Shown here piece by piece: positions 27,811 to 41,854 of a stretch of 64,000 nucleotides of DNA. Made by a program: the position numbers and the translations under genes. Position 1 is the stretch's first letter. The number at the start of each line of letters is the position of its first letter. The stretch covers positions 64,001-128,000 of the forward strand of contig CAVVKN010000002.1 in the NCBI GenBank assembly GCA_963748825.1, written 5' to 3'. This DNA is from Methanotrichaceae archaeon (GTDB lineage Archaea > Halobacteriota > Methanosarcinia > Methanotrichales > Methanotrichaceae). The notes under the pieces were generated by a model. It did no database searches and was not told the DNA's origin. It saw only the letters and a program-made list of their open reading frames with translations.

Positions 27811-28662
27811 ATGGACGCTGATCTCTGGGCAAAAGAAGCAGATGAACTGTATCAACATGGCCAATTCGATGAAGCCATCCCATTTTACGAGAGGGTCATA
27901 GAGCAAGATCCGGAAAATGCAGAATTGTGGAACCGCAGAGGTTTGACCCTATGTCGCCTGGGCAGGCACCAGGAGGCCATTGATTCATTTGAGACCGCCC
28001 TGAAGATAGACCCGAAGTACACCGATGCCCAGAATAATAAAGGCGTTGTTTTCTACAAACAGAAGAGATACGATGAGGCCATGGCATATTTTGACGGGAT
28101 AATCAGGACGAATCCCCGGTACGTTAGAGCCTGGTACAACAAGGGCGTGGTCTTAGACAGGCAGGGAATGTACCGAGAGGCCGTCAATTATTACGATAGA
28201 ACCCTTGAGATGAATCCCGGCGGAGCTCGAGTATGGTGCAATCGAGGAGCGGCTCTGGGAAATATGGGCGACTACGAAGCAGCCTTGGACAGCTTTGACA
28301 GGTCCATAGCCCTGCAGCCAGAAAGAAGTGAGTTCTGGAACAACAAGGGAGCCGCTTTGGCAAAGCTGCACAGATACGATGAGGCAGTGGCGCATTTTGA
28401 CAGGGCACTTCAGATCGATCCAGAAAATGCCGATGCCTGGTACAACAGGGGCGAGGCTCTACGGCGTCTGAATCAGTTTGCGGAAGCGATCGAAGATTTT
28501 GATAGGGTCATTGAGATCGATGACCGGCATGCCAGAGCCTGGAACAGCAAAGGCCTTGCTCTCAAGGCTTTGGGCAAGGATAACGAGGCGGATGCAGCCT
28601 TTGCTAAAGGCTCAGAGCTAATGCTGAATGGGAGCAAGAGACAAGAAGCGCAGGAGATCTGA
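27811..28662 (+). CDS. Tetratricopeptide repeat protein
   Basis: About eight 34-aa repeats AWxNKGxxL...EAxxxFDxAL. Confidence 0.92.
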   Translation: MDADLWAKEADELYQHGQFDEAIPFYERVIEQDPENAELWNRRGLTLCRLGRHQEAIDSFETALKIDPKYTDAQNNKGVVFYKQKRYDEAMAYFDGIIRTNPRYVRAWYNKGVVLDRQGMYREAVNYYDRTLEMNPGGARVWCNRGAALGNMGDYEAALDSFDRSIALQPERSEFWNNKGAALAKLHRYDEAVAHFDRALQIDPENADAWYNRGEALRRLNQFAEAIEDFDRVIEIDDRHARAWNSKGLALKALGKDNEADAAFAKGSELMLNGSKRQEAQEI

Positions 28663-28668
28663 TGCAGC

Positions 28669-28734
28669 GATGAATAGGAGGGAGGCAAAAGTCTTAGTGT
28701 AGGAGGGAAGAAAAGAGGTGCTTCGACTTTTGCC
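28669..28734 (-). ncRNA. Candidate sRNA, copy A (hairpin with anti-SD motifs)
   Basis: GGCAAAAGTC/GACTTTTGCC 10-bp stem, TCCCTCCT in loop and 3' tail, TATA (TTAAATAT, 28765-28758) upstream; paralog at 41168-41233. Confidence 0.6.
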
Positions 28735-29274
28735 GATTAGACTATAAGCATTCGCCGATATTTAAGGATTTCGCCACGATAACTAATTGAGCAATCATAC
28801 CTCCGGAAAAGAACTACCAGATAATTACAAACCAGCCTAGTGTAATGCGCTCAGTGTCGTGGTGTACAAATACAAAGTTTTTATCATATCTGCTTTTGCG
28901 CTTGCTTTGTCAAGTAGCAACTCATTTGCTGGTTTGGAATATGGAAGAGCGAATCCTTATGCTTACTCTAGAATGCAATATGATCGCCTTGGCCACCTGC
29001 GAAGCCTGCGAAGAGTCCAACTAAGCAAAATCTTCTATATCAATCACAACCCTGAGCTTCCACTTTGCGGCTAGAATACGCAGCATACTCTCCTATCGAG
29101 CTTGCGTGGCTACCGCATGGCCCATCTTTCCAAAAGCCTCAACGTATTAGCCAAACCGACCTGCTGCAAGTTCGTCCGTCAATATTTATAAAGATTCTTG
29201 ATATATTCATCTGGAACTATAACGCCCTATTGTATGCACATTATTTTAGTTATATTTAAAGCATATATAAATTT

Positions 29275-38422: not shown

Positions 38423-40939
38423 TTAAGACGTCTCCATGCGGTAGAAAATCTTTTTCACAAGCTCAGCAGCTGCGATGTAAATCCCCACAATAACTGCTAT
38501 TATGACCAGAAAATAAGTTGGTATTTTTGTGAAGCCAAAGGGCTCCGATAGCGGGCTGAATGGCAGGATGAAAGTAAATAGGCCAACCAAAAGTGTCACG
38601 ACTATCAATGAAATGCTTGGTCTGGACGAGAAAAATGGTCTTTTGGTGCGAATGATCAGCACAACAAAGGAGGCCGATACCACCGACTCGATGAACCATC
38701 CGGTTCTGAACTGATCAACAGTTGCATGTAGCAGGAATAACAGCGCTCCAAAGGTCAAGAAGTCAAATAAAGAGCTCAGCAGGCCGAAGGTCACCATGAA
38801 GTTCCTGATGAATCCAATTGACCATCGCCTTGGTTGTGATACCAGTTCTGGGTCCACCCTGTCCCCTGCAATGGTCATCTCCGGAAGGTCGGTCAAGAGG
38901 TTAGTGAGCAGGACCTGTGTGGGAAGAAGGGGCAGGAATGGAAGGAACAGGGAAAGCAGGGCCATGCTGAACATGTTTCCGAAATTGGCGGATGTAGCCA
39001 TGAAGACGTACTTCATAGTGTTGGAGAATGTCTTTCTCCCTTCGATGACACCTTGTTTTAGAACACTAAGGTCTTTTTCCAGGAGGACTATATCGGCAGC
39101 CTCCTTGGCCACATCTGCGGCACTGTCTACAGAGATACCGATATCAGCAGCGTGAAGGGCGGAGGCGTCGTTGATACCATCGCCCATATAACCCACCACG
39201 TTTCCGGTCTTGCGCAGGGCCAGGATAAGTCTCTCCTTCTGGTTTGGCTCCACCTCAGCAAAGACATCAACTTCCGAAACGAGCTTTGAAAGAGCCTCGT
39301 CGCTTTCCCGCCGAATTTCGGGGCCAGTCAGGATTCTTCCTTCAAGCAGCTTTAACTGTTTGCTGATACTTGTTGCCACAAGCCGGTTGTCGCCGGTTAT
39401 TATCTTGAGGCCAATCCCTAATTGGTTCAGGTCGCTAATGGTCTGTGCGATTCCCTCCTTTAGCGGATCGAATAAGACCAGGAATCCCAAGAACGTCATC
39501 TCCGCTTCATCTCTAGCAAGAAGGACGCCGGCCTCAACAGTCTTCTTGGCCAGGCCCAGAACTCGGAATCCCTTCCCGCTAAGCTCCTGGAATCTGGCCT
39601 GGATCTGGTCTTTGACCAAAGAGATATCCACAACTTCCTGGGCCATCATGGCGGAGGTACAGATCTCCAGGACGTTTACCAGGGCCCCCTTGGTAACGAT
39701 AGTGTGTTCGTCGTCATTTGATACCAGAATGCTTAGGCGCTTTCGGACAAAGTCGTAAGGCACCTCATCTAATTTTTTAAATCCGGAAACATCGAGTTTA
39801 CGATAACTGAGGATGGCCTGGTCGATAGGATTGGAAAACCCTGTCTCGAAGAAGGCGTTTACATAGGCCAAGAGAAAAACTCCTTCACTCTCCTCACCTT
39901 CAAGATCCAGAACTGAGTTTAGCTTTACTGTCCCTTCCGTCAGGGTTCCTGTCTTGTCGGTGCATAGAATGTTCATGCTCCCAAAATTTTCAATCGAAGC
40001 CAGACGTTTGACTATGACTTTATGAGTGGCCATTTGCCTGGCTCCGTGGGCCAGATTTATGCTGATAATGGCCGGAAGGAGCTGAGGTGTCAGGCCAACC
40101 GCCAGTGCCAAAGAAAAGAGAAAAGAATCTACAATTGGGCGGGCCAGGTAGACGTTTATGGCAAAAATGGCCACTACCAGAACCATTGTTACCTCTAGAA
40201 GCAGGTAGCCAAAGTGTTTGACACCGTGTTCAAACTCCGTCTCAGGCTCACGGAGCTTGAGTCGCTGAGATACGCGTCCAAACTCAGTATCCGTTCCTGT
40301 ATGGACGACTACAGCCTTGGCAGTCCCGCTGACTACGTTTGTCCCCATAAAAAGGCTATTGGTGCGCTTGCTTAGAGGCGTGTCCTCGTCCAGACTTCCG
40401 GTCATTTTTTCAGCAGGATAAGTCTCCCCGGTAAGTGTCGCCTCGTTGATGAAGAGATCTTTGGACTGGAGGATCCGGGAATCTCCTGGGACGATATCAC
40501 CCGCGTTCAGCACTATAATGTCTCCGGGTACGATATACTCCATCAGGACGTCCTTTTGTATTCCGTCCCTAAGAACGGAGGCTTTGATCTGAATTATGGC
40601 CAGCAGACCGGCTACTGCATCTGCGGCGCTCCTCTCCTGCCAGAAGCCCAGCAGGCCGCTTATGAAAATTATGGCCAGGATAATCGATGCGCTGGTCACT
40701 TGATGGAGATAGAAAGAAAGGCCAGCGGCGAATACTAGCAGCAGAATTATAGGGCTATTGAACTGAGCCAGCAGCAAAAGGATAGAATAAGACTTCTTGC
40801 GGGGCTTTAGCAGGTTAGCACCGTATTGTTTGAGCCTTTTTTGAGCCTCCTTTTCATCCAGCCCCACCTCCTTTGCATCGAGCAATCTGAGCAGTTCTTC
40901 GGGTGAAGCAGACCAAAAGGCGGATAGATCACGGCTCAC
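38423..40939 (-). CDS. mgtA: Mg2+-translocating P-type ATPase
   Basis: LTGE, AVGLTPQLLP, DKTGTLT, PYDFVRKR, GDGIND, SANFGNMFS. Confidence 0.92.
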   Translation of the reverse strand: MSRDLSAFWSASPEELLRLLDAKEVGLDEKEAQKRLKQYGANLLKPRKKSYSILLLLAQFNSPIILLLVFAAGLSFYLHQVTSASIILAIIFISGLLGFWQERSAADAVAGLLAIIQIKASVLRDGIQKDVLMEYIVPGDIIVLNAGDIVPGDSRILQSKDLFINEATLTGETYPAEKMTGSLDEDTPLSKRTNSLFMGTNVVSGTAKAVVVHTGTDTEFGRVSQRLKLREPETEFEHGVKHFGYLLLEVTMVLVVAIFAINVYLARPIVDSFLFSLALAVGLTPQLLPAIISINLAHGARQMATHKVIVKRLASIENFGSMNILCTDKTGTLTEGTVKLNSVLDLEGEESEGVFLLAYVNAFFETGFSNPIDQAILSYRKLDVSGFKKLDEVPYDFVRKRLSILVSNDDEHTIVTKGALVNVLEICTSAMMAQEVVDISLVKDQIQARFQELSGKGFRVLGLAKKTVEAGVLLARDEAEMTFLGFLVLFDPLKEGIAQTISDLNQLGIGLKIITGDNRLVATSISKQLKLLEGRILTGPEIRRESDEALSKLVSEVDVFAEVEPNQKERLILALRKTGNVVGYMGDGINDASALHAADIGISVDSAADVAKEAADIVLLEKDLSVLKQGVIEGRKTFSNTMKYVFMATSANFGNMFSMALLSLFLPFLPLLPTQVLLTNLLTDLPEMTIAGDRVDPELVSQPRRWSIGFIRNFMVTFGLLSSLFDFLTFGALLFLLHATVDQFRTGWFIESVVSASFVVLIIRTKRPFFSSRPSISLIVVTLLVGLFTFILPFSPLSEPFGFTKIPTYFLVIIAVIVGIYIAAAELVKKIFYRMETS

Positions 40940-41167
40940 AAATGTCTATTATACCTCTGAAGGGATAACTCTTTCCAACATCTCTAACGTTTTTTGATAT
41001 TCCCGGACCAACGACTTTCCAACGCGGCCGGAGCCGTTCGAATCTCACCCAAAATGGCCTGCCTGCATCTCAATATCTCATTCTCCTGATTATTTCTTTG
41101 GAGTGAAAATGATCTTTTCGGCCTGAACCGAAAGCCTTTTATATCGGCAATTGACGTATAGTATATT

Positions 41168-41233
41168 GGCAAAAGTCGAAGCTATTTTTCCCTCCTACAT
41201 CACTGACTTTTGCCTCCCTCCTTCTTATTCATC
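41168..41233 (+). ncRNA. Candidate sRNA, copy B (hairpin with anti-SD motifs)
   Basis: Same stem and TCCCTCCT motifs as 28669-28734; TATA TTTTATAT at 41137-41144 with identical spacing to the stem. Confidence 0.6.
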
Positions 41234-41543
41234 AAACGCTTTCATGAGGATCTAGAACATCCGATTTCATCCATCCTCCGCTTTCCAAAAGAAAGACTTA
41301 TAGCCTAAATCATCCTTATTCCTTCAAGAACGCCAGCCATTCGGAGGAGAGGCAATTAAGTCGGGGCGATGAGGCTTGAAGACTGGCCAGGCCCACAGCC
41401 CCATTTATATCCCCGGCACCCTTGATTTTTACAGGTGCATGTGTATCTGTATCTGGCTCAAAATCGATTTTCTGGATCGCGGCTCAGCTCTTCGGAGATA
41501 TTTGTATAGTATTATAAAAATAGTTTAGGAAAATGCCATAGAA

Positions 41544-41683
41544 CCATATTTGCCTGAATCTACCTGGGCGTTGTAGCGGCTGGCGAGACTGAGGAGGAGA
41601 CGTTGGAGCTGATGAAGGAAGCTACAGAATTCCACTTAAAAGAAGAGAATCGTCCATGCTTCCAGAATTCCTTAAGATCATAA
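41544..41683 (+). pseudogene. HicB/UPF0150-family antitoxin remnant
   Basis: VVAAGETEEETLELMKEATEFHLK from 41570, preceded by frameshifted PYLPE/LPG. Confidence 0.65.
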
Positions 41684-41854
41684 TCTTAGCAGAAATTTTT
41701 CGAACAATATTATATATACACATACATCCTTCAAGAAAGATAGCAAAAGCAACGCCTGGTGTACTCTCTGGAAAGCTCACCTCCCTTAAAAATCCTTAAA
41801 TAGTAATAATGCCCGATTGAGGGAAGTTGCAAAAAATATTTGGCGGTTATAGGC

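Follow-up and report, generated by a model that had tools for sequence, protein, structure and literature searches.

A candidate family of small RNAs with two anti-Shine-Dalgarno-like motifs in Methanotrichaceae

The window, by which we mean the whole 64,000-nt stretch of DNA that was analyzed, carries on its plus strand a putative sRNA gene, copy B, which together with its promoter spans positions 41129-41235 and is expected to start at G41168. A BRE-like CGAAA (41129-41133, at -39 to -35 relative to G41168) is followed by the TATA box TTTTATAT (41137-41144, at -31 to -24, centered at about -27.5), and the spacing from the end of TATAT to G41168 is 23 nt. Between the TATA box and the start site lies an imperfect palindrome, CGGCAATTGACG (41145-41156, at -23 to -12). 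The predicted RNA begins with a 5'-terminal hairpin (41168-41214), whose arms (41168-41178 and 41204-41214) form 11 bp around a 25-nt loop. In this loop a U-run precedes CCCUCCUAC (41190-41198), the first seed resembling an anti-Shine-Dalgarno (anti-SD) sequence, with its CCCTCCT at 41190-41196. The hairpin is followed by a single-stranded tail (41215-41229) that contains the second seed, UCCCUCCU, and then the U-rich UCUUAUU, the probable 3' end region; tail bases 41215-41222 read TCCCTCCT. A preliminary description had proposed the sequence, place and layout of copy B, and the promoter, the 23-nt gap, the hairpin and both motifs are all found where it had put them. The 73-nt RNA from 41168 has a predicted folding energy of -13.8 kcal/mol (z = -4.75), a stability that was not matched by any of 200 dinucleotide shuffles.

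The surroundings of copy B likewise agree with that description, which had the gene divergent from mgtA and followed by some 600 nt lacking an intact reading frame. The divergent, putative mgtA gene is an 838-aa ORF on the minus strand (38423-40939), which Pfam assigns to the P-type cation ATPases, and the next downstream ORF of at least 100 aa begins at 41840. No synteny between copy B and the ATPase gene was seen in the sampled loci of relatives. Within the 600-nt gap, inspection by eye revealed a short open stretch on the plus strand (41570-41680) that resembles the C-terminus of a small antitoxin-like protein and has no in-frame start; it is possibly a gene remnant.

A second gene in the window, copy A (28662-28773, minus strand; 72.1 bits), repeats this build in the opposite orientation, as had been described. 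Its BRE is at 28773-28769, its TATA box at about 28765-28758, its hairpin at 28734-28684 with 28734 as the first G, and its tail runs to about 28662, where it adjoins the stop codon of a convergent 283-aa ORF (27811-28662). The fold of copy A has a z of -3.64. An 18-mer covering the 3' arm and the tail occurs exactly twice in the window, where 0.09 occurrences are expected, and two matches were obtained in none of 100 shuffles. Across the whole genome (2.88 Mb in 25 contigs, 50.8% G+C), BLAST and a regular expression together detected 13 copies, from which we made a covariance model. At E <=1 this model gave 17 matches in the own genome: 14 at 43.9 bits or more, two weaker ones (28.8 and 25.3 bits) that retain the stem and the C-rich motifs, and one at chance level. 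The genome-wide count of siblings therefore stands at 14-16 copies and not at the original two. Four of the genes form a tandem array on contig 14 (28296-28794; L007:1119-1617), about 290 nt upstream of the tRNA gene at L007:1908-1979, and each of them has a separate TATA box. The tandem copies are spaced 126-180 nt apart, so the RNAs of the array would be shorter than about 100 nt unless there is read-through.

To describe the promoter we computed a logo over 130 copies, comprising 16 from the own genome and 115 from 100 loci of relatives, minus those near a contig end. Upstream, C, G and A reach 51-61% at -39 to -37 and A reaches 83-89% at -36 and -35 (CGAAA). A block of T and A only follows at -31 to -24, at a constant distance in the 130 copies. 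At the start itself, T is found in 70% at -1 and -2, and G in 99-100% at +1 and +2. Archaeal promoters combine a BRE with a TATA box about 27 nt upstream of the start, and the conserved elements fit this geometry, which suggests that they are a BRE/TATA promoter with its start at the first G of the stem.

The logo also revealed conservation of the palindrome at -23 to -12. In the own genus it reads CGGCAATTG(A/C)CG, and in other genera and families CGAC....GTCG or CGTC....GACG. Of 138 distinct copies, 30 have a perfect 4+4 inverted repeat and 79 have it with one mismatch; among 138 shuffled controls, 13 have the perfect form. A plus-strand scan of the own genome with the strict palindrome motif hit sRNA promoters exclusively (four of four). 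These observations suggest that the palindrome is a candidate operator, at which one dimeric regulator could switch the whole family. The co-regulation of siblings that had been proposed from promoter conservation is compatible with this picture, as not only the promoter but also an extra element between TATA box and start is conserved.

The hairpin was examined in 111 distinct copies, where the ten stem pairs are standard in 98.2% of cells; the conservation of stem and motifs persisted when more homologs were aligned, a point on which the preliminary description had staked its claim. Three of the ten pairs are invariant in this set, six vary on one side only, and one shows a double change (A-U to G-C, in 12 cells). 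As 71 of the 100 loci from relatives had been picked by a pattern requiring both arms and the tail motif, these figures are biased towards conservation. We therefore also looked at a set of 31 copies from four families that was collected by the model only, removing three weak antisense rows before compensatory changes were counted. Here such changes were seen at two pairs: one changed from A-U to G-C in two cases, the other from U-A to C-G in a single case, with eight U-G intermediates. Covariation is thin because the sequence of the stem is so highly conserved. Judged by these substitution patterns, the stem is a helix of RNA that is constrained in its sequence as well.

Both C-rich motifs carry CCUCCU, the last six bases of the organism's own 16S rRNA, which ends in ...GGAUCACCUCCU. 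Four identical 16S genes were found (contigs 5, 7, 10 and 18; 1568.4 bits each), at least those on contigs 5, 7 and 18 lying within about 3.5 kb of a contig end. The CCUCCU at the rRNA 3' end is identical to the core of both sRNA motifs, whereas the two bases 5' of the core differ, being CA in the rRNA and CC or UC in the sRNAs. By this difference an sRNA would favor AGGAGGG and the rRNA AGGAGGUG. The loop measures 25-39 nt (median 30), and its conserved core consists of the U-run, CCCUCCU and AC, with variable surroundings. Of 126 parsed copies searched by expression, 98 have CCCTCCT in the loop and 17 a close variant, and neither was detected in the remaining 11. The tail motif directly follows the 3' side of the stem.

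The predicted accessibility of the two motifs was evaluated by partition-function folding of 125 distinct copies. The loop motif is unpaired with a mean probability of 0.96 (above 0.8 in 110 of 116) and the tail motif with a mean of 0.98 (above 0.8 in 116 of 121), as compared with 0.02 for the 5' arm in the same folding. One subtype of the loop is kept far past the CCUCC core across three other genera (L189, L190 and L191), and this speaks for base-pairing over a longer seed than the SD complement. After the tail the logo shows the U-rich UUNUUAU. A clear oligo-T terminator was not seen there, T4 occurring within 40 nt in 35 of 126 copies and T5 in 7 of 126, and this leaves the position of the 3' end uncertain.

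We determined the spread of the family by searching other genomes with the covariance model. Within the genus all 36 searched genomes were positive, with 4-14 copies each. In a class-wide draw of 150 genomes, each at least 90% complete, matches were found in all 64 genomes of Methanotrichaceae, which represent 14 genera and have 1-18 copies each. Among genomes of the Methanosarcinaceae type (family f3), 21 of 76 were positive, always with single matches; the other families in the draw gave two of six (f4) and three of three (f5), again with single and more distant copies, and none of one (f2). There was no significant match in 21 searched genomes of the large-genome Methanosarcinaceae genus g6, and with laxer filters four g6 genomes and one of genus g23 again gave none (best E = 0.86). 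A degenerate pattern of hairpin plus tail was also scanned over 185,579 species, represented by one genome each, and hit at least 117 stretches. Among the matches listed, all 80 loci belong to metagenome-assembled genomes labelled Methanothrix, Methanosaeta, Methanotrichaceae, uncultured Methanosarcinales or, once, uncultured archaeon. On the strength of these labels we take the window to be Methanothrix DNA.

The single-copy relatives hint at how the family arose. In two genera of the Methanosarcinaceae type there is a single gene, with the same TATA distance and stem as the family (L167-L171; G044-G046, G052 and G055). These single copies have a longer loop with CCCCUCU and a tail that lacks CCUCC, and the copies in f4 and f5 resemble them. 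In both loci examined, one per genus, the gene is convergent to a gene for a sodium:solute symporter (SSF; L168 and L170). Since the single-copy relatives have no CCUCC in the tail, the double anti-SD design would be derived and not ancestral. Taking this distribution as a guide, Methanotrichaceae are distinguished by the double anti-SD design and by the expanded copy number. The invariant stem, which single-copy relatives in other families of the Methanosarcinia also have, points towards an older, unknown RNA as the origin of the family.

For the gene context we used naive ORFs of at least 100 aa; naive ORFs also supplied the lists of start sites used below. Among 115 copies, 61 face a convergent ORF as their nearest downstream neighbor, 41 have a co-oriented one at a distance of -2 to 1300 nt, and 13 have none; this bears out the earlier remark that the siblings sit in unrelated gene contexts. 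As the downstream genes have no constant orientation, the family is not a leader; a cis-acting 5' leader was excluded for the family as a whole, the downstream ORF having neither fixed orientation nor fixed distance. We consider it highly probable that the copies are genuine sRNA genes, each transcribed independently.

As to function, we favor trans-acting sRNAs that would mask ribosome-binding sites (RBSs) with their C-rich seeds, a reading of pairing and repression to which we assign a probability of roughly 55%. In this model each gene would produce, from its own BRE/TATA promoter, an RNA of about 60-80 nt whose 5' end coincides with the first G of its hairpin of 10-11 bp. CCCUCCU(AC) would be displayed by the large loop, and the second CCCUCCU by the tail after the stem. 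The seeds would pair with GGAGG of mRNAs and keep the 30S subunit off, lowering translation, while target preference could differ from sibling to sibling according to the variable flanks of the loop motif. All siblings would be switched by one regulator that acts at the conserved palindrome. If this is true, the family would give access to translational control in an organism for which there are no genetic methods, and the RNAs, the promoter element and the candidate regulator would be amenable to study in vitro or in a Methanosarcina host.

Suitable sites for such seeds do exist, for GGAGG is in excess 5-9 nt before candidate starts of naive ORFs in the own genome. Complementarity alone is barely informative, since any CCUCC pairs with any strong SD. 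For target prediction, duplex energies were computed at about 10,000 naive SD-led starts, and exact complements were looked up. The complement of the tail 10-mer occurs eight times outside the sRNA genes, as against a uniform-random expectation of about 5.5, and four of the eight are at RBS-like positions. Candidate targets include a PMT_2 glycosyltransferase gene on contig 4 (C4:91382), which matches the tail over 14 nt, two genes of one Fpo/Nuo-like operon (fpoH-like and fpoJ-like), and genes for an aminotransferase, an SBF transporter, a response regulator and MC1. The candidates showed no enrichment over what any strong SD yields. The operon (with NADHdh and Oxidored_q3 domains; contig 6, 124000-131000; L172) has two internal RBSs that match the seeds over 9-10 nt. 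We rejected the fpoJ-like RBS, the strongest candidate in the operon, as a conserved target, the extended match being present in one of 29 genomes and the 16S-type GAAGGAGGTG in 25 of 29. Statistics on the flanks of SD sites were dropped, as they were dominated by GGAGG within coding frames.

Some of the same features could be read differently. The RNA might be real and work mainly via a protein, the stem, the U-run and the C-rich loop being recognition sites (for example of an Sm-like protein) and the copies a sponge or scaffold. We regard this as unlikely, with some observations in its favor: the stem GGCAAAAGUC/GACUUUUGCC, nearly invariant in the 111 distinct copies and kept in four families of the class, exceeds what structure would need and hints at sequence-specific recognition, for example by a protein; a U-run stands before the loop motif in most copies; and single copies of the ancestral type have no second CCUCC. 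Yet the sequence points to no particular protein partner, and the duplicated CCCUCCU match to the 16S end would be left unexplained. Protein recognition and RBS masking are compatible, and a chaperone may assist the pairing.

The siblings might also act as one pool of 16S 3'-end mimics, amplified by gene dosage. Up to 18 promoters per genome, controlled by one regulator at the palindrome, would in that case titrate SD sites genome-wide. If so, translation would move from SD-led genes, often internal to operons, to leaderless and weak-SD genes, and the family would serve the main acetate-using methanogens as a global switch of translation instead of as a set of gene-specific regulators. We mention this as a speculative extension that is improbable at present.

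A further alternative concerns the B-type copies, in which the hairpin is accompanied by additional conserved sequence. The unit at 41055-41411 has 80-85% identity to sequences on contigs 3 and 23 of the own genome and is similarly close to at least 10 loci in other genomes, with a sharp right edge at about 41402-41411. By these alignments copy B is inside a larger conserved non-coding unit with sharp edges, which the preliminary description had overlooked. Its upstream flank (41055-41128, +), common to the B-type copies, is the end part of a conserved non-coding region of about 640 nt that is complete elsewhere. Its downstream part (41240-41411, +), also conserved and non-coding, comprises a BRE/TATA-like block, GAAAGACTTATAGCC (41292-41306, +), strongly conserved in B-type copies; a 20-nt element, GGAGGAGAGGCAATTAAGTC (41343-41362, +), which is complementary to the sRNA's own 3' arm and tail over 18 bp with two bulges; and a GC-rich hairpin (about 41370-41405, +), again conserved in B-type copies. 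No ORF is kept across aligned copies in the 170 nt after the sRNA. A small ORF of 18 codons at 41369 was discarded, as its ATG is missing in two of 12 aligned copies and no frame is kept.

The duplex of GGAGGAGAGGCAATTAAGTC with the 3' arm and tail has a predicted energy of -27.6 kcal/mol, a value as low being found in 10 of 19,909 random genome windows, and the consensus fold of the long form pairs the same segments. The complement block is exclusive to B-type copies and absent from at least 11 other copies in the own genome. It may be a second small RNA, serving as decoy or target, or a piece of a read-through form.

It is accordingly conceivable that the B-type hairpin is a module of this larger non-coding unit, acting in cis or on a neighboring transcript, with its 3' arm and tail pairing with the complement 130 nt downstream, so that the outcome would be an alternative structure in a read-through RNA or a pair of sRNA and decoy. 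The unit's 80-85% conservation across 12 or more loci from several genomes, its sharp right edge, the rarity of so stable a duplex among random windows and the choice of this duplex by the long-form fold all agree with this idea, as do the BRE/TATA-like block between hairpin and complement and a tail without a clear oligo-T terminator. We nevertheless find it doubtful, for the complement is found in B-type copies alone, and the 11 or more other copies of the own genome keep promoter, hairpin and both motifs. In addition, the paired columns of the long-form fold barely vary and so lend no covariation support, and in the copy on contig 3 the tail is mutated and the duplex weakened to -16.6 kcal/mol.

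The upstream region of about 640 nt deserves description in its own right. It immediately precedes the hairpin on three contigs of the own genome (3, 17 and 23) and in 30 or more loci of relatives; a complete version of this multi-copy, non-coding region is on contig 3 of the own genome (84427-85065; L002:907-1545), and copy B retains its last 113 nt or so (41055-41167). A TATA-like box stands at its beginning, its consensus fold comprises 124 pairs, compensatory changes were seen in 11 of these, and no ORF is consistent across its copies. A group II intron or another known RNA was rejected, as there was no Rfam match at E <=10. The region could represent a large structured RNA not described so far, or else a mobile element that is non-autonomous. 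The sRNA copy on contig 3 has a truncated TnpB (OrfB_IS605) ORF upstream (L002:3-632) and a DDE transposase downstream (L002:1986-3125), the latter belonging to a repeat of 1.08 kb that recurs on contigs 10 and 6 with 99.9-100% identity.

That the copies are a non-transcribed repeat, MITE-like or related to recombination, or the opposite strand of an SD-rich leader, is very improbable: the family is multi-copy, some copies are near IS elements (the TnpB fragment and DDE transposase that flank the contig 3 copy) and the reverse strand bears GGAGGGAGG and, in most copies, AUGUAG, but conservation is bounded by the BRE and the tail in 10 aligned copies of the own genome, the flanks are unrelated in most copies and showed by eye no terminal inverted repeats or target duplications in those 10, the BRE/TATA at fixed distance is on the plus side only with nothing conserved at the minus-strand promoter position, and the family is retained in 64 of 64 genomes and 14 genera with genus-spanning subtypes.

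Returning to trans-acting sRNAs that would mask ribosome-binding sites, we asked how far the family is already known. With Rfam 15 at gathering scores, the window and eight sibling loci gave tRNAs only; in E-value mode, 41100-41450 and a Methanosarcinaceae homologue gave only chance-level matches (E >=0.45), far below the gathering scores. Our search of the available article texts on Methanothrix/Methanosaeta sRNAs and on the stem and tail motifs returned nothing on the family, and it found no papers on RNA regulators of Methanothrix. The sRNA family thus appears undescribed. Methanothrix is a major acetoclastic producer of methane in wetlands, rice soils and digesters.

The principle itself is already known, C-rich seeds against the SD, siblings and tandem arrays from bacteria and single genes from Methanosarcina, and what would be new is the family. 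We know of no larger family of sibling sRNAs in archaea, among which the present one, with 1-18 copies per genome, would be the largest. The sRNA41 gene of M. mazei is reportedly a single gene, compared with up to 18 copies in the family, a comparison made at the level of description. It is reported that sRNA41 masks ribosome-binding sites, including internal ones of polycistronic mRNAs, and represses translation (PMC5867862, PMC9170634). It is like the family in being an archaeal intergenic sRNA of the same class with reported RBS masking (PMC5867862). Loop 2 of M. mazei sRNA154 is another parallel, as it is described to hold an anti-RBS sequence in a hairpin loop and to mask the RBS of glnA2 (PMC5867862). 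Unlike the family, sRNA154 has two stem-loops, is nitrogen-regulated, is encoded by a single gene and stabilizes other targets too.

Among bacteria, RsaE/RoxS and LhrC1-5 of Listeria are sRNAs with C-rich seeds, and the LhrC siblings include a tandem array, which is comparable to the four tandem copies on contig 14 here. The S. aureus Rsa RNAs are presented as sRNAs of Firmicutes with a C-rich (UCCC) seed (PMC2790875). The C-rich sRNAs of Firmicutes resemble the family in that unpaired C-rich motifs in loops or linkers, several per RNA, are directed against the SD. They differ from it in having sigma-type promoters and intrinsic terminators and bear no sequence relation to it, while the family in turn is set apart by a full CCUCCU seed, a hairpin at the very 5' end and a higher copy number.
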